The notes under the pieces: model-generated
Told to the model about the DNA's origin: nothing
Databases searched by the model: none
The model's input: only the letters and a program-made list of their open reading frames with translations
Made by a program: the position numbers and the translations under genes
Assembly: GCA_016432325.1 (NCBI GenBank)
Contig: CP066684.1
Location: 480,001-544,000 of the forward strand
Reading direction: 5' to 3'
Source: Candidatus Aenigmatarchaeota archaeon
Lineage (GTDB): Archaea > Aenigmatarchaeota > Aenigmatarchaeia > PWEA01 > JACQIF01
DNA: 64,000 nucleotides
Part shown: piece by piece, positions 12,308-49,595 of the stretch
Numbering within the stretch: the first letter of the stretch is position 1
Layout: each line of letters begins with the position of its first letter

Positions 12308-14017
12308 ATGTTCTCCGAATTCAGAGAGGCCGTGCTGGAGACGCTGAAGAAAGAGGTTCCAGCACGCGCGGAAGATTTGGTTGAACCTCCGGAACCCAAG
12401 AGGTTCCGAGGCTCCGGAACTTCGTTCCGCGAGCCGCCTGAAGGCATGGGCGAGCTGGGCTATCCGTGTTTTGGGCTTGCCAAGGAGCAGAAGAAGAGTC
12501 CTGCCGATATCGCTAAAACTCTGGCCGTGCGGCTCAAGACAAAGACGCCAATATCAGAAGTGCGCGCCGTCGGGCCTTACGTGAACTTCTTTGTGGACTG
12601 GAACGCGTTCGCTTCATCAGTCAAGCAAGCCTCGTCCAAGACATGGGGTTCCTCGTCCGTCGGCAAGAACAAGACCGTCATCGTCGAATACTCTTCGCCC
12701 AATGTCGCCAAACCAATGCACGCCGGCCATCTGATGACCACTGTCGTGGGCGACAGCATCTACAGGCTCCTGCGCGCGCAGGGCTACAAGACCGTACGAA
12801 TAAACCATATCGGCGACTGGGGCACCCAGTTCGGCAAGCTCGTTGTCGCATACGAGAAGTGGGGAGACGAGGCCGCGCTGAAGAAGAACCCGATAAAGGA
12901 ACTCGTGCGCGTCTATGTGCGCTTCCACGAGGAGGCCGAACGCAACGACGCGCTGGAAGAGGACGCGAGAAAGGCGTTCGCCCTTCTGGAGAAAGGCGAC
13001 AAGAAGCTGCGCGCGACGTGGAAGCGTTTCGTGGAGCTGAGCCTCGAGGAGTTCAAACGCACTTATGCGGAGCTGGGCGTCGATTTCGACGCGTGGACCG
13101 GCGAGAGTTTTTACGAAGAAATGCTTGGCGACGTCATAGAGGACGCGCTGAAGAAACGCATCGCAGAGGAAGAGGCGGACGGTTCGGTGGTAATAAAATT
13201 CGGCGATTTGCCTCCGATGCTGATACGAAAAAGCGACGGCTCGAGTCTCTACGCGACGCGCGATTTGGCGACTCTGCGCTATCGTGCCGCGCACTACAAG
13301 TTCAACAAGTGCGTTTACGTCGTCGGCGCTCAACAAACTCTTCATTTCCAGCAGCTGTTCGCGGCTGTGTCGCGGCTCGGCTACGCGGATCCGCAAAAGT
13401 GCGTGCATGTGCCTACGGGATACATCAACCTGCCTGGTGGCGCGATGTCAACGCGCAAAGGTACGGCCATCCTTGCCGACGAGATTCTGGAAGAAGCGAA
13501 GAGACGCGCCGCGAACGTCATAGAAGAGAAGAATCCTACGATAAAGAACAAGAATGCCGTCGTGAACAAAGTGGCGATGGGCGCCGTGAAATACACGAAC
13601 CTCGCGCAGCACCGCGGCAAGGACGTCACGTTCGAGTGGGACAAAGTGGTTAATCTTAGGGGAAATTCGGGCCCGTACCTGCAGTACACGTACGCACGCG
13701 CGTCTTCGATACTGCGCGAAGGGAAGGCGAAAAAGGTCAAGCCGAAGTATGAGGACGCGAACGAGCGGCGGCTTCTGCTTAAGATATCGAAGTTACCCGA
13801 CGCCGCCGAGGCCGCTGCTTTGAACCTGACGCCGCACGTAGTCGCCGTCTATCTGCATGAGCTCGCGGAGCTGTTCAACTCCTTTTACGAGAACTGCCAC
13901 GTACTGAAGGAGAAGGAACCCGTACGTTCGTCACGACTGTTGCTAGTAGGCGCGTTCAGAAACACCATGGGCCGCGGGCTGGAACTGTTGGGAATTGAGC
14001 CTTTGGAAGAGATGTAG
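12308..14017 (+). CDS. argS: Arginine--tRNA ligase
   Basis: VEYSSPNVAKPMHAGH, NHIGDWGTQFG, KSDGSSLYATRD, MSTRKG, GPYLQYTYAR, C-terminal LEEM. Confidence 0.97.
   Translation: MFSEFREAVLETLKKEVPARAEDLVEPPEPKRFRGSGTSFREPPEGMGELGYPCFGLAKEQKKSPADIAKTLAVRLKTKTPISEVRAVGPYVNFFVDWNAFASSVKQASSKTWGSSSVGKNKTVIVEYSSPNVAKPMHAGHLMTTVVGDSIYRLLRAQGYKTVRINHIGDWGTQFGKLVVAYEKWGDEAALKKNPIKELVRVYVRFHEEAERNDALEEDARKAFALLEKGDKKLRATWKRFVELSLEEFKRTYAELGVDFDAWTGESFYEEMLGDVIEDALKKRIAEEEADGSVVIKFGDLPPMLIRKSDGSSLYATRDLATLRYRAAHYKFNKCVYVVGAQQTLHFQQLFAAVSRLGYADPQKCVHVPTGYINLPGGAMSTRKGTAILADEILEEAKRRAANVIEEKNPTIKNKNAVVNKVAMGAVKYTNLAQHRGKDVTFEWDKVVNLRGNSGPYLQYTYARASSILREGKAKKVKPKYEDANERRLLLKISKLPDAAEAAALNLTPHVVAVYLHELAELFNSFYENCHVLKEKEPVRSSRLLLVGAFRNTMGRGLELLGIEPLEEM
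12383..12442 (+). repeat. In-frame 48-nt twin-hairpin insertion in argS with duplicated EPPE codons
   Basis: CGGAACC-CAAGA-GGTTCCG, 6-nt linker, CGGAAC-TTC-GTTCCG, between GAACCTCCGGAA and GAGCCGCCTGAA. Confidence 0.7.
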
Positions 14018-35874: not shown

Positions 35875-35909
35875 TCATATGTTTGGGTGCAAAACGATTT
35901 AAATGGTGA

Positions 35910-35948
35910 TGGCGGGCCTCTTGGAAAGACGCGCTTTCCAAAGGCCCG
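35910..35948 (-). repeat. Hairpin downstream of tRNA-Arg that duplicates its acceptor stem and G-CCA end
   Basis: Minus strand GGGCCT-TTGGAAAG-CGCGT-CTTTCCAA-G-AGGCCC-G-CCA. Confidence 0.75.
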
Positions 35949-35962
35949 ACCTTTGAAATTTA

Positions 35963-36274
35963 TGGCGGGCCTGGTGGGATTTTCCATCGTCGCGCCGGTG
36001 TACGGGAACGGAGTTCCCGACATGCCGGAAATGCCCGGCATTTCCGTGCACAGGCGGACTTTTCATGAAAGCTTTGGCGCGTATATCGAGCGAGCGCCGA
36101 TAGGCGCGAGCGCGCCAAAGGTTTCGAACCCACGGCTTCCAGATTGCTTCTTTCATTCGGGACAGTGCCCGTCAATGCTTCCAACGCATGCATTAGAAGT
36201 CTGGCACTCCATTAGCTCCGTTTTCGCCATGCGTTGCCGCCAGCGAAAAGGCGCCCAAGCTGAGTTACAGGCCC
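35963..36274 (-). tRNA. tRNA-Arg(TCT) with three introns: D-loop ~36213-36254 (~42 nt), 37/38 at 36145-36193 (49 nt), 59/60 at 35980-36122 (143 nt)
   Basis: GGGCCTG/CAGGCCC-G-CCA acceptor; ACTC/GAGT D-stem; CCAGA-CT-TCT-A^...^A-TCTGG with BHB helix CTTC/GAAG; GTGGG-TTCGAA^...^T-CCCAC; TTTATTTA promoter upstream. Confidence 0.88.
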
Positions 36275-38506: not shown

Positions 38507-41314
38507 ATGGAATACGACTTCCGCGCGGTCGAGAAGAAGTGGCAGGAGAAGTGGGCCGACGCGCGCATATTCGAGCCGGGGGCAAAAGGCAAGAAGTTCC
38601 TCTTCACCGTTCCCTTTCCTTATACGTCCGGTCCTTTGCACGTGGGCCACGGACGAACTTTCACCATAGGGGATTTCATCGCCCGCTACAAGAGAAAGAT
38701 GGGGTTCAACGTCCTGTATCCGATGGCCTTCCACATGAGCGGCACTCCCGTCCTCGCGATTTCGCGCGCCATCGAGGCGGGAGACAAGAAGACGACGGAT
38801 CTCTATACGGATTACGTGAGCCTCTACGACCCGAAGAACGCCGGTTCGATTATTAAGAGCTTCAAAGACCCGTGGAACGTCGCCAATTTCTTCGCGTCTG
38901 TCATCGAGAAGGACTTCCGTTCTATCGGCTATTCGATAGACTGGACGCGCACGTTCAACTCCGGCGAGCCGATATACAACGCGTTCATCGAATGGCAGTA
39001 TCTGAGAATGCGCGAGAAGAACGTGATAACGAAAGGCTCGTATCCGATTCTGTACTCTCCTGACATGCAGAACGCCGTTGGCGAGGACGACATAAAGGAC
39101 GGGGACACGGATCCAGTGGATCTTCAGGAGTACACGGTCGTGAAGTTCAGGATGGGAGGCGACGTTCTTCCTGCCGCGACGCTCAGACCGGAGACGGTTT
39201 TCGGCGTCACCAATATCTGGGTAAATCCCGACGCGTCTTACGAGCGCGTGCGTGTAGCCGACGAAACATGGATACTGTCCAAGGAGGCCGCGGCGAAACT
39301 GCGCCATCAGAAAGAGAACGTCGGGCGCATCGGAGACGTCAAGGCCAAAGAACTGATCGGAAAGGAGGTTGAGATACTCGGACGAACGGTTCCCATACTG
39401 CCCGCGACGTTCGTGGACGCGGACCACGCCACAGGCGTCGTCTATTCCGTCCCGGCTCACGCACCTTACGATTATGCCGGACTCGTCGACTGTCAGAAGA
39501 AAGGGCTCGGTGTTGGCGTAAAGCCGATAAAGATTGTAGACATCGAAGGTTACGGCGATTGTCCTGCGGAAGAGGCGTGCAAAAAGTTCGGAGCAGGTAC
39601 GCAGGCCGACGAGCAGGCGCTTGACGAAGCGACTAACCAACTCTACAAGGACGAGTTCTACAAGGGCGCGTTAGGCAAGAAGTGCGGAGAGTTCGCAGGT
39701 CTCAAGATATCAGAGGTCAAAGATACTGTGAAAGCATGGATGCGCAAGAAAGGCAACGCCGACGTCTTCTACGAGCCGTCGCGCCGTGCCGTAACGCGCG
39801 ACGGCCGCGTCGTTATAGGCGCGGTTCTCCGCGACCAGTGGTTCCTCGACTACACTTCGAAAGAATGGAAAGAGAAGACAAAGAAGCTCGTCGACGGGAT
39901 GGATATCTATCCGGAAAAGTACAGGAAGTCCTTGCGGGATCTGATAGACTGGCTGGAAAAGAGGCCGTGCGCGCGCAGGCGCGGCATCGGCACGAAACTC
40001 CCGTGGGACAAGGAATGGACGATAGAAAGTCTCTCCGACTCGACGCTTTACATGGCCCTGTACACGGTAGCTCCTATAATCAGAAAGGAGGCGCGGCCCG
40101 AGCAGCTCGTTCCGGAAGTCTTTGATTTCATCTTTCTGGGCAAGGGCGCAGCAAAGGACGTTGCGAAGCAGAGCGGCGTCAAGGAGCGTGCGCTCAAGGA
40201 GATGCGCGAACAGTTCGAGTATTGGTATGCGGTGGACCAGAGACATACGACGCCGGCTCACCTGTCCAACCACCTGTCTTTCTACCTGTTGCATCACACG
40301 CTGCTCTTCCCGGAGAAGTACTGGCCCCGCGCGCAGACGCTCAACGAGATGCTTCTGGGCGTGGAAGGCCAGAAGATGTCAAAGTCTAAGGGAAACGTAA
40401 TCCCTCTTCTCGACGTCTCGCGGAAGTACAGCGCCGACCTGTTCAGGACCTACGTCCTTTCGGCGGCTGACATAGACACGACCATGGACTGGTGGGAGTC
40501 GATAGTCGCCTCGACGAAAGGGAAGCTCTACCAATTCGTCGAACTGATGGACGCGGTCTCAAAGGCCAAGCCCGCGAAGAAAACGGAAGGCGCGGACAGG
40601 TGGATGACCGGCCGGTTCTACCAGAGGCTGGCGCGCGCCAAGACCGCGGCAGAGACGTACAAGATACGCGCGTACGTCATCGAACTGTTCTATGATATGC
40701 TGACTGACATCGCCTACTACAGACGCCGTGTCGGGGACGAGCGAGCGATGCCGGTGATACGCACGTTCGCAGAAGACTGGCTGGTTGCTCTCGAACCTGT
40801 GATGCCTCACCAGGCCGAGGAGTTCTGGGAGCGGTTCGGCAACAAGCCGTTCGTTTCGCTCGCTAAGTGGCCGAAAGGAGGCGCGACGCTGGACAGGCGC
40901 GTCGAGCTGTCAGAGGATGTCGTGAAGCGCGTCCTCGAAGACGTCGCGGAAATCCGCAAGATAGCGGACATAGAGAAGCCTCGGCGCGTCGTTCTTTTCG
41001 TCGCGCCTGAGTGGAAGAGGCGCGTGTACGCGCTCGTTCGCGCAGGCAAGCAGCTGAAGGACGTGATGCAGGACGCTGAGCTTAAGAAGTTCGGCCAAGA
41101 TATCGCGAAGTATGTGCCCACGTTGCAGAAGCGCGTGCACGAATTGCAGGCTGACGTGCTCACAGAAGACGAGGAGTACGAAGCTCTGAAGAGCGCGGCC
41201 GAGTTCCTGCAAAAAGAAACCGGAGCGGCTGTCGAGATAGTGCGCGCGTCCGCGTCGAAAGAACAGAAGGCGCGCGCAGCGGACGTGCACAAGCCGGGGA
41301 TATTGATTGGGTGA
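38507..41314 (+). CDS. leuS: Leucine--tRNA ligase (archaeal type)
   Basis: PFPYTSGPLHVGH, AATLRPET, TGVVYSVPAHAPYD, ESLSDST, KMSKSKGN. Confidence 0.97.
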   Translation: MEYDFRAVEKKWQEKWADARIFEPGAKGKKFLFTVPFPYTSGPLHVGHGRTFTIGDFIARYKRKMGFNVLYPMAFHMSGTPVLAISRAIEAGDKKTTDLYTDYVSLYDPKNAGSIIKSFKDPWNVANFFASVIEKDFRSIGYSIDWTRTFNSGEPIYNAFIEWQYLRMREKNVITKGSYPILYSPDMQNAVGEDDIKDGDTDPVDLQEYTVVKFRMGGDVLPAATLRPETVFGVTNIWVNPDASYERVRVADETWILSKEAAAKLRHQKENVGRIGDVKAKELIGKEVEILGRTVPILPATFVDADHATGVVYSVPAHAPYDYAGLVDCQKKGLGVGVKPIKIVDIEGYGDCPAEEACKKFGAGTQADEQALDEATNQLYKDEFYKGALGKKCGEFAGLKISEVKDTVKAWMRKKGNADVFYEPSRRAVTRDGRVVIGAVLRDQWFLDYTSKEWKEKTKKLVDGMDIYPEKYRKSLRDLIDWLEKRPCARRRGIGTKLPWDKEWTIESLSDSTLYMALYTVAPIIRKEARPEQLVPEVFDFIFLGKGAAKDVAKQSGVKERALKEMREQFEYWYAVDQRHTTPAHLSNHLSFYLLHHTLLFPEKYWPRAQTLNEMLLGVEGQKMSKSKGNVIPLLDVSRKYSADLFRTYVLSAADIDTTMDWWESIVASTKGKLYQFVELMDAVSKAKPAKKTEGADRWMTGRFYQRLARAKTAAETYKIRAYVIELFYDMLTDIAYYRRRVGDERAMPVIRTFAEDWLVALEPVMPHQAEEFWERFGNKPFVSLAKWPKGGATLDRRVELSEDVVKRVLEDVAEIRKIADIEKPRRVVLFVAPEWKRRVYALVRAGKQLKDVMQDAELKKFGQDIAKYVPTLQKRVHELQADVLTEDEEYEALKSAAEFLQKETGAAVEIVRASASKEQKARAADVHKPGILIG

Positions 41315-41938
41315 TCAGGCTTCTATCATATCAGGATCCTTGTATGTGCATAGATGGTCCTTGCCTGCGAGTCCGGCAACGAATTTCTTTACTTTGGGGT
41401 CCATCCAGGACGCGGGCTCTTTGCCCACATGCTGCGACAGGAAAAACATCGCTTCGCATCCGAGCATGCGCCCGACATCCTGACTTCTCGGCGTGTAGTC
41501 CAGATCGAGTCTCTTCAGAGTTGGCCGTATGTCGTCGATGGGGGAGCCGACTTTCTTGCCAAGAATGGCATCGAACCTGTCCCAAGCCTCGCCGTCTGCT
41601 GTCCTCGCGATAGTCGCGTGTCTCGTATGCGGCCCGCTCTCTATTAGCTGCGTATGTGTTTCCATCGGCTCCTGCTCCTCGCGCGGAATCGTCGGATACA
41701 TAGAAACCTTGACATATCCCTTGCGCGTATCCCACACGTGCCACAGACGGGTGTTGTTGACAACAGAAGCGACATTTACGCCGTCGACGTTGACTCCTCT
41801 GGCCCACGATTGCGGAGGCTGCACGAGCACGCACTCGTCAAGAACGGCGCCTCTCTCCATATGAGTTCCGCGGTCTGCGACATATTTGGCGGTCAAGAAT
41901 ATGTTTCGATTCGCATAAACCTCAGTATTGACAGACAT
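41315..41938 (-). CDS. Hypothetical protein
   Basis: 207-aa ORF with TATA upstream; no family recognised. Confidence 0.55.
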   Translation of the reverse strand: MSVNTEVYANRNIFLTAKYVADRGTHMERGAVLDECVLVQPPQSWARGVNVDGVNVASVVNNTRLWHVWDTRKGYVKVSMYPTIPREEQEPMETHTQLIESGPHTRHATIARTADGEAWDRFDAILGKKVGSPIDDIRPTLKRLDLDYTPRSQDVGRMLGCEAMFFLSQHVGKEPASWMDPKVKKFVAGLAGKDHLCTYKDPDMIEA

Positions 41939-42045
41939 CGATTCCCTTTAAACGCAAAACTATTTAAGCGTGTATATGGAACTGAAAGCCATTCCCAAGC
42001 AGACAGACTATCGGCGATCTATGTCGGACGCAGGCGTTTTGGTCG

Positions 42046-42654
42046 TTAGTTTCGTCCAAACTTCTTCGAACGCCTAGCGTTCGAAGTTTTCGGATTGCGT
42101 CCGAAAATCTCCCAAACATCAACCATCTCGGGGTTCTTGAACAACTTTCCTGCGTGGGCCAAGCCGCCGGTTTCCAGAATCTCAAGATAGGCGCCGTCAG
42201 CGCGTGCGTCGTCTTCAACGAACACCCGTCCGTCTCTCGTCATGACGGCCAGCGGTGTCTCCAGTCTTCTTTCTATAACTGTGCTCTCCATCGAACGGGC
42301 GACTCCGGGGATGCCGGCACTGACGAAAGGAACGACTACGCCAGGACACGTGGCCAGAGGGGGCATGTTGATTTCGTAAGTTCCCTCGGCGCCTCCTATG
42401 GAAGACATCTCGGAAAAATCTCTGGTGGAGCCGTAGAAACTGAAGCGCTTCTTGCCGTCCAGCAGCGCCGCTGCCATCGACGGCACTTCCAGGTGGGCTA
42501 TCTTGTAATCCAAGTGGTAGTGGTTTCGTCTCGTTTTCCCTTCAATGACGGCGTTGAACACGGTCGATTGTCCAACGCGCCGCACGTCCCCACTCGCGGT
42601 GCGCAGTGTCCTCATAACGCCTGCAGTTGTAACAGAAAGAATATAAGCACGCAC
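42046..42654 (-). CDS. Hypothetical protein
   Basis: 202-aa ORF; no family recognised. Confidence 0.5.
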   Translation of the reverse strand: MRAYILSVTTAGVMRTLRTASGDVRRVGQSTVFNAVIEGKTRRNHYHLDYKIAHLEVPSMAAALLDGKKRFSFYGSTRDFSEMSSIGGAEGTYEINMPPLATCPGVVVPFVSAGIPGVARSMESTVIERRLETPLAVMTRDGRVFVEDDARADGAYLEILETGGLAHAGKLFKNPEMVDVWEIFGRNPKTSNARRSKKFGRN

Positions 42655-44939: not shown

Positions 44940-45270
44940 TACGAACGATTTTCGAACGGAGGTTCGAAAACTTCAAACGCCGTGCGTTTGAAGAAGTTCG
45001 TGGATTTGAAACCGAGGATTTCATAGTCCTCCCTTAGAAAATCGCGCCTGACCGAAGAGGTCGGGCAAGGACCCAGTTCCAGTGTGTGGGTTCGTGTGGA
45101 TGTCCGGGAAGGCCGAACCTTCTCGGCACTCACCATTACAGGTTCTTGCGCGTTGGGAAACGCCTATACGGTTCATTCGCTGGGTCAAAGGAACCTAAAG
45201 CTCTTGCTTTAATCTTCCCTCCCGCGGTCGGGAAGCCTTTAAAACCCACTAGGCCGCGACAGGGGGTTTT
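44940..45270 (+). ncRNA. Candidate structured non-coding RNA of unknown class
   Basis: At least 7 hairpins with G-U pairs favouring the + strand, a GNRA (GGGA) loop, and long-range GACCCAG/CTGGGTC pairing; no credible ORF. Confidence 0.4.
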
Positions 45271-49283: not shown

Positions 49284-49595
49284 TGGTAGCCCCGGGAGGA
49301 TTTTCTGTTGCGCGCATCCGTTGCCGGAAGGCGTAATTCCATGAACGCTTTCGAGCGTTTACATATTGTCTTTGGCTCGAAAGGGTTCTTCGAACCTCCG
49401 TCCACTGGTCTCTCCTCGCGTATGAAATGAACGCAATCAGAGCCAGTTATCCTTTTGTGTAACCGTTGCGGAAGCGGGCTTCCGTAAACGCTTTTGCGCG
49501 GTGCACGAAACGGCTATGCCGTTTCGGCATGCCGGAAACACGCCGTGTTTCCGTGCAACGTGCGCAGAAGGGTTTGGCCACTAGACTACGGGGCT
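49284..49595 (-). tRNA. tRNA-Gln(CTG) with three introns: D-loop ~49453-49573 (~121 nt), anticodon loop ~49410-49436 (27 nt), 59/60 at 49301-49388 (88 nt)
   Basis: AGCCCCG/CGGGGCT-A-CCA (A1-U72, typical of archaeal Gln); GTCT/GGAT D-stem; ACTGG-CT-CTG...CCAGT with BHB-like CTCT/GGAG; GGAGG-TTCGAA^...^T-CCTCC. Confidence 0.88.

Follow-up and report, generated by a model that had tools for sequence, protein, structure and literature searches.

A short palindromic repeat of two bulged hairpins in tRNA introns, protein genes and intergenic DNA of an Aenigmatarchaeota archaeon

In the genome of a Candidatus Aenigmatarchaeota archaeon, introns located at different positions of two different tRNA genes and an insert in argS, the gene for arginine--tRNA ligase, share a plan of two adjacent hairpins. 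The question raised by this locus is what kind of module can reside in such dissimilar places. The window, i.e., the whole stretch of 64,000 nucleotides that was analysed, corresponds to positions 480001-544000 of a single-contig genome (G000) of 874,869 bp, with 56% G+C and a completeness of 90% by marker genes.

The repeat in the window and its host genes

The family was searched with four seed copies by iterated nhmmer on the genome, which converged on 25 loci. Based on these, we used two covariance models: R1, built from 20 full-length copies aligned over 63 columns, and R2, built from 17 copies, none of which is from the window and from which the near-identical copy at genome position 851738 was also excluded. 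The features of the window are as follows, in window coordinates:

12308-14017, plus strand: argS (arginine--tRNA ligase), open reading frame identified by Pfam PF03485, PF00750 and PF05746 and by homologues
12386-12433, no orientation: module copy 3, 48 nt or 16 codons in frame in argS, near the N-terminus (R1 31.9 bits, E 1.6e-6; R2 29.7 bits)
approximately 35963-36274, minus strand: tRNA-Arg(UCU) gene with three introns (D-loop, 37/38 and 59/60) and an encoded CCA end, read by hand, by an acceptor/T-arm scan and by a splice-site search
35980-36122, minus strand: T-loop intron (59/60) of tRNA-Arg(UCU), 143 nt, host of copy 1
35997-36052, no orientation: module copy 1, inside the T-loop intron of tRNA-Arg(UCU) (R1 65.5 bits)
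approximately 49284-49595, minus strand: tRNA-Gln(CUG) gene with three introns (D-loop, 37/38 and 59/60) and an encoded CCA end
approximately 49454-49576, minus strand: D-loop intron of tRNA-Gln(CUG), 121-123 nt with a splice register ambiguous by 1-2 nt, host of copy 2
49500-49559, no orientation: module copy 2, in the loop of a hairpin within the D-loop intron of tRNA-Gln(CUG) (R1 58.6 bits)

The copies in the tRNA-Arg and tRNA-Gln introns share an identical 11-nt block (36021-36031 and 49528-49538) and an identical 10-nt block (36041-36050 and 49548-49557), separated by 9 nt in each copy, and the hairpin arms between and before these blocks differ by compensatory changes. The identical blocks, equal spacing and compensatory stems reported in the initial annotation were thus verified in the sequence. 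The statement that the argS insert follows the same plan was also upheld, as this copy is recognised by both models although it belongs to neither training set; its R1 match extends over 12384-12435. The argS copy does not have the conserved TGY/RCA letters, but it keeps the plan of a 3-bp lower stem, a 1-nt bulge and a CG-closed stem, twice.

In the 64-kb window, R2 identified exactly three loci, with 58.5, 51.5 and 29.7 bits (E-values of 1.5e-12, 7.6e-11 and 1.6e-5) for copies 1, 2 and 3, respectively, the next best match being 13.3 bits. The scores of both models were nearly alike on both strands; with R2, copy 1 obtained 58.5 bits on the minus strand and 53.9 bits on the plus strand, and copy 2 obtained 51.5 and 50.2 bits on the two strands. 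Near-equal strand scores are as expected of a DNA palindrome, and since the consensus is itself pseudo-palindromic, no orientation can be assigned to the copies.

Neither intron copy touches a splice site. Copy 1 is separated from the splice sites of its host intron by 70 nt (5′) and 17 nt (3′). This intron has a relaxed helix-bulge-helix as its splice motif, consisting of the 5-bp T stem and three of four central pairs, and its splicing leaves a T loop of 7 nt. The intron that hosts copy 2 has a relaxed helix-bulge-helix too, built from the tRNA stem and the intron ends. The initial assignment of the module to tRNA introns therefore stands as regards its location inside T-loop and D-loop introns; it does not stand as regards its extent, because the module is nested in much longer introns and forms no part of the splice motif.

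Interrupted tRNA genes are the rule in this genome. Genome-wide, ARAGORN with introns allowed reported only 10 tRNA genes, and 8 scored above threshold with the Rfam tRNA model, whereas a custom scan that required an acceptor stem of 7 bp, a T arm and an encoded CCA end yielded approximately 40 candidates of 88-430 nt, indicating that nearly all tRNA genes are interrupted. The inserted modules are part of the reason why most tRNA genes of this genome escape standard finders.

The surroundings of the argS copy have particularities of their own. An imperfect 12-nt direct repeat (9 of 12 positions, with mismatches at third codon positions only) brackets the insert within 12374-12445, the 5′ arm of the first hairpin consists of host codons that the relative with an empty site also has, and the four arms are all one word or its complement. 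Elsewhere in the window, a weak model match (approximately 12-13 bits) was located at 45099-45152, in the unassigned non-coding region between ftsZ and secE; the matching locus of a congeneric genome, G001, carries a full-scoring module (G001:C25:552-606).

Fold, family size and distribution

In the consensus, two bulged hairpins, TGY-A-CG[stem]CG-RCA and TGY-CG[stem]CG-T-RCA, follow each other directly and together form a pseudo-palindrome, so that the unit of 48-60 bp is an inverted pair of one bulged hairpin with purine-rich, CG-closed stems. Pair counts over 20 copies showed that 94.9% of the cells are paired and that 15 of the 21 pairs changed on both sides, values reached by none of 500 shuffles; the covariation that the initial annotation had called for is accordingly strong. 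The 3-bp lower stems covary as well, being TGY/RCA in most copies, CAT/ATG and CGC/GCG in others, and CCT/AGG and CTC/GAG in argS, and neither the bulge nor the CG closing pairs vary among the aligned copies. Minimum-energy folds of the three window copies gave the same two bulged hairpins with either strand, with z-scores from -4.3 to -5.9 relative to dinucleotide shuffles (-4.75 for copy 1 and -4.96 for copy 2). A closed three-way junction was considered and rejected, as the closing helix formed by the two ends is only 78.8% paired. Single hairpin units were also located, at genome positions 441663, 127309, 246852 and 258411.

At E < 1e-3, R1 identified approximately 33 distinct loci in the genome, three of them in the window; searching the genome and its relatives with a covariance model, as initially suggested, thus returned many further copies. 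Two copies at different loci are approximately 95% identical. Additionally, perfect hairpins with a CGRRA arm occur 100 times in the genome, approximately 20-fold more than the roughly five predicted by Markov shuffles after scaling to the length of the genome. No Rfam family matched the module, either in the window or at the twelve loci with copies that were scanned. These data confirm that the Arg-intron, Gln-intron and argS stretches belong to one repeat family.

Most members of this family, about three quarters of the copies, are located outside tRNA genes; about one quarter are in tRNA introns or trailers. Copies in identified host genes and RNAs are as follows, in genome coordinates where given:

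tRNA introns (about seven copies, plus a weak partial one in a tRNA-Cys intron): tRNA-Arg and a tRNA with a GUU anticodon, both at 59/60; tRNA-Gln and tRNA-Met(CAU), both in the D-loop; tRNA-Gly(UCC) at 37/38; two more tRNAs at 59/60
tRNA 3′ trailers: two copies
649010-649275 (L027:1344-1609): RNase P RNA gene (RF00373, 56 bits, E 6.8e-15), containing a 51-nt module
39867-42356, minus strand: family B DNA polymerase, PolB (Pfam DNA_pol_B; L015), with 54 nt or 18 residues in frame within the polymerase domain
lectin-domain protein: one copy in the N-terminal region

The score of the RNase P RNA gene is below the Rfam gathering threshold (56 versus 84 bits). The remaining copies are located in leaders, directly past stop codons or in intergenic DNA. 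No more than two to four copies are within genes, although approximately 90% of the genome is coding DNA, and those of argS and PolB, for which empty sites were verified, are in frame, have lengths divisible by three and contain no stop codon. This scarcity in genes, together with the in-frame lengths, is the signature of insertion followed by selection.

Other parts of the tRNA genes are repeated as well. A composite intron made of a hairpin, a GC palindrome and the module is present in tRNA-Gly(UCC) at 37/38 and in the D-loop of tRNA-Met(CAU) (genome 211186-211466 and 830562-830787), which represents whole-intron sharing of the type known from Thermoproteales, beside the spread of the module itself. 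In tRNA 3′ trailers (window 35900-35968, minus strand; genome 314616-314690 and 24690-24805), a conserved hairpin is followed by a second tRNA 3′-end word with CCA, as though the tRNA end had been duplicated around an insert. A homologue of the first half of the T-loop intron family was located at genome 688900-689200, between two protein genes and outside tRNAs, which indicates that other intron building blocks are dispersed repeats as well.

Beyond this genome, about nine loci were found in the 0.54 Mb of the congeneric genome, and none in the 20 genomes searched from the order's five other families. In a sample of the phylum, the family was present in 10 of 150 genomes and concentrated in three families; the positive groups are the own genus (g1) and the families f7 (7 of 12 genomes), f9 (2 of 3) and f31, and the repeat was not found in 21 other families sampled. 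The two positive f9 genomes, which belong to one genus, have more than 30 matches each, with scores of up to 67 bits, as high as those of the G000 copies. One of these lineages has CA/TG instead of CG/CG closing pairs with the plan unchanged. The presence of the family in distant lineages, together with the negative result in the nearer lineages searched, fits horizontal spread better than an inherited functional RNA.

Sites with and without the repeat

The comparison of orthologous loci for empty sites, proposed in the initial annotation, was made mainly with G001, the sole congeneric genome available, which is 73% complete, has approximately 70-78% DNA identity in genes and was compared whole. 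Empty sites were found for the tRNA-Gln intron, PolB, RNase P RNA and argS. The D-loop intron of the G001 tRNA-Gln(CUG) contains the same hairpin with a 6-nt loop and without the module, and the G000 module sits exactly between loop letters 4 and 5 of that hairpin. The G001 PolB gene is shorter by exactly 54 nt at the module site, and its RNase P RNA does not have the 51 nt. The copy in a 5′ leader (genome 665404) and an intergenic module pair (652670/652735) are also missing from G001. The reverse case was observed too, as copies of G001, e.g., that of G001:C34, are missing from the matching G000 locus. For 750013 and 441665, the alignments with G001 are too diverged to define exact junctions.

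In the case of argS, the closest ArgRS homologue in the protein collection searched (P0002, from a Logan contig; 69% identity) has exactly 16 residues missing at the module site and is 15 residues shorter overall, and 13 order- and class-level orthologues are contiguous across this site. Filled and empty sites also coexist within G000. Base-for-base alignment of paralogous trailers showed the module in the tRNA-Lys trailer and not in the Arg trailers, and the T-loop intron family has the module in two tRNAs and is devoid of it in its tRNA-Gly member; the Arg-type T-loop intron and a composite intron each exist with and without the module. As the module is added to or missing from homologous introns, one step of intron growth is documented with exact before and after pairs.

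None of seven aligned sites shows a target duplication; argS shows only the imperfect 12-nt repeat, which overlaps host codons. The 3′ flank is CC in 8 of approximately 24 copies and in the three cleanest empty sites, and no longer common word was found. At 665404, one stem resembles a motif that is repeated in the flanking promoter region. The tRNA-Gln(CUG) gene of G001 (L123:740-880, G001:C57) has the D-loop intron only, and the G000 gene adds those at 37/38 and 59/60, indicating that introns were gained or lost between two congeneric species.

Four DNA runs of one groundwater study contain the locus, and no RNA run is listed as containing it; the four runs represent one haplotype, with no gap at either module, and their contigs break at the repeated Arg copy. 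The assembly was probably made from these runs, which therefore do not constitute independent evidence.

Nature of the repeat and possible means of spread

One family with a conserved fold of two bulged hairpins occurs in many contexts, is present or absent at exact junctions without target duplication and has a patchy distribution. We consider it likely that the module is a short non-autonomous palindromic DNA repeat, comparable to REP/REPIN elements, Rickettsia palindromic elements (RPE) or PATEs, which was inserted as a block at many sites and survived only where it was tolerated. This agrees with the original suggestion of an RPE-like mobile structured element in tolerant sites, in view of the approximately 33 copies, mostly outside tRNAs, the exact filled and empty pairs and the two copies in frame in essential genes. 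In tRNA genes, the module would occupy hairpin loops within pre-existing introns, where it would be cut out with the intron by the splicing endonuclease, at no cost to the tRNA but with a longer intron as the result. The argS and PolB copies would be translated as inserts of 16-18 residues, and those in RNase P RNA, tRNA trailers, the 5′ leader and intergenic DNA may simply be carried along. Spread would take place at the DNA level, as a folded single strand, by means of a structure-specific enzyme acting in trans, most probably of the HUH/Y1 type (IS200/IS605 TnpA or RAYT-like).

A search for such a mobiliser elsewhere in the genome, also called for by the initial annotation, was negative: no Y1/HUH transposase (PF01797) was found in the whole G000 genome or in G001, and the single weak PF01797 match in G000 (11.6 bits) is the translation of a module copy. 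No TnpB was found in either genome, the PF07282 search giving only sub-threshold noise. With no HUH/Y1 enzyme found in G000, the present copies would be relics or would be moved by an unrecognised protein. Among the module-bearing genomes tested, 5 of 11 have tnpA, compared with 3 of 35 relatives without the module; these genomes are related and not independent, so this association is only a hint. No strong model match adjoins the gene at the five tnpA loci examined (G023, G032, G022, G062 and G142). In G023, a class-level relative, a weak twin hairpin with purine-rich arms (L157:1821-1871, G023:C5; 17 bits with R1) is located immediately upstream of an IS200/IS605-type tnpA, and in G062 a hairpin with similar arms is located downstream of tnpA.

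Besides the negative search for a mobiliser and the tnpA data, other observations count against this reading. The upper stems are very diverse and yet almost perfectly paired, which would not be the case for a recently copied selfish element and is consistent with selection for the fold, acting either on the element or on the host. In addition, no ongoing insertion was observed, as the four metagenome runs have one fixed haplotype. Simple cut-and-paste, moreover, does not explain why a hairpin arm matches adjacent host sequence in argS and, in part, at 665404.

A first alternative is that the module is a functional RNA, i.e., a protein-binding platform or folding aid whose hairpins are selected in transcripts and which the host recruited repeatedly. 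Although the stem sequences differ greatly, all helices show strong compensatory change, the 3-bp lower stems among them, the bulge and CG closing pairs do not vary, the fold is stable, and several copies are just past stop codons or in leaders, where bacterial REP elements affect mRNA stability. Nevertheless, introns (orthologous or paralogous), RNase P RNA, PolB and ArgRS work without the module; copies are also present within coding sequence; the consensus is the same on both DNA strands, which would leave many copies transcribed in one sense or the other; and the closest other families of the order, where the module was not found, and the absence of an Rfam match point in the same direction. 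We regard a functional RNA recruited by the host, including the protein-binding RNA motif initially offered as the alternative, as unlikely, and a purely RNA-level, intron-specific role is unlikely as well.

It is more improbable still that the module itself is an intron of the archaeal, enzyme-spliced type, moving by transposition from one tRNA position to another, with the nested copies being introns within introns. Similar sequences in different tRNAs and positions do follow the pattern of Fujishima et al. 2010, as summarised in PMC4090602, a module-bearing composite intron is shared by tRNA-Gly(UCC) at 37/38 and the tRNA-Met(CAU) D-loop, and two unpaired stretches of 3 nt flank the module in tRNA-Arg. 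These stretches, however, face each other as a 3x3 internal loop and are not staggered by 4 bp, so they form no bulge-helix-bulge; a strict search for this motif at the module ends found none, and most copies are outside tRNA genes, including coding sequence that is read through in frame. The similarity between hairpin arms and neighbouring sequence could alternatively mean that the hairpins were generated on the spot from host sequence, through inverted duplication or fold-back repair, with no master element. The host-codon arm, the single arm word and the 9/12 direct repeat of argS, as well as the likeness of one stem at 665404 to a motif of the flanking promoter region, would be accounted for in this way, but the lower stem, bulge, CG closure and central palindrome are common to unrelated contexts and to other families of the phylum, and two copies at different loci are nearly identical, which makes a local origin very improbable. 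The sequences are short, GC-rich and self-complementary, and chance likeness could be suspected on that account; it is practically negligible in view of R2 E-values between 1e-12 and 1e-5, well separated from the background, the number of loci and the excess of CGRRA hairpins.

The preferred reading, a non-autonomous palindromic DNA repeat, has several precedents. The REP/BIME/REPIN elements of bacteria are mobilised by RAYT (Y1 HUH) transposases (PMC3116915, PMC2817692, PMC3733652) and have a conserved GTAG or CGTC tetranucleotide at one end (PMC3733652). The module shares with them the form of a short imperfect palindrome, found alone or as an inverted pair, a copy number in the dozens per genome, a fold maintained by compensatory changes, and the lack of both coding capacity and target duplication. 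In contrast, its ends are TGYA and TRCA, with no GTAG/CGTC tag, its host is an archaeon, its units each consist of a stem set off by a 1-nt bulge from a lower stem of 3 bp, its copies extend beyond extragenic DNA to introns, ribozyme RNA and coding sequence (argS, PolB), and no RAYT-like (Y1_Tnp) gene was found in G000 or G001. The RPE are palindromic repeats located in frame in unrelated, even essential, protein genes, with which they are translated; these bacterial elements of approximately 100-150 bp are also present in RNA genes and non-coding DNA (PMC10969869). The module resembles them in its in-frame copies in argS (48 nt) and PolB (54 nt), each with an empty site in a relative. Comparing size and host, it differs from the RPE in its 48-60 bp and in being archaeal, mostly non-coding and in about one quarter of cases in tRNA introns or trailers.

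The PATEs are miniature elements derived from IS200/IS605 and known in Haloquadratum. They have hairpin-based ends and no usual terminal inverted repeat, produce no target duplication and are expected to be mobilised in trans by TnpA. Likewise, base-for-base alignments showed that the module was inserted without target duplication or classical terminal inverted repeats, unlike a classical MITE, which has terminal inverted repeats and a target-site duplication. However, no tnpA is present in G000 or its congener, and no conserved target tetranucleotide is definable. The module also differs from an archaeal bulge-helix-bulge intron, as the two staggered 3-nt bulges 4 bp apart are absent at its ends; the host introns do have relaxed forms of this motif.

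In Thermoproteales, similar introns at different tRNA positions were read as intron transposition, according to the account of Fujishima et al. (2010, Mol Biol Evol 27:2233) given in PMC4090602. The module shows a comparable pattern (tRNA-Arg 59/60, tRNA-Gln D-loop, tRNA-Gly 37/38 and tRNA-Met D-loop), and arrival at the DNA level is inferred for both; however, the unit in Thermoproteales is the whole intron with its splice motif, whereas here it is a passenger nested in introns and present equally outside tRNA genes. The mechanism by which archaeal tRNA introns arrive is described as unknown in reviews (PMC4090602), and a 2026 preprint on Asgard archaea found no general route of arrival. Our literature search found no paper on such elements in Aenigmatarchaeota. 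The module would then represent selfish DNA of a familiar kind, with a novel shape and host.

A more far-reaching proposal is that the module propagates itself without a transposase of its own, moved by a host or unrecognised structure-specific enzyme, and that, by landing in the loops of spliced introns, it is a main driver of the growth and mosaic build-up of the unusually long and numerous tRNA introns of these DPANN archaea. This extension is doubtful. The module nevertheless shows one way in which archaeal tRNA introns grow, namely enlargement by nested insertion. It also shows that repeats of the REP/RPE type, best known from bacteria, populate ultra-small archaeal genomes, and that small palindromic repeats reach essential genes (ArgRS, PolB) and ribozyme RNA (RNase P). 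If the self-propagating reading were true, it would provide a concrete, testable route for the origin and enlargement of protein-spliced archaeal introns.
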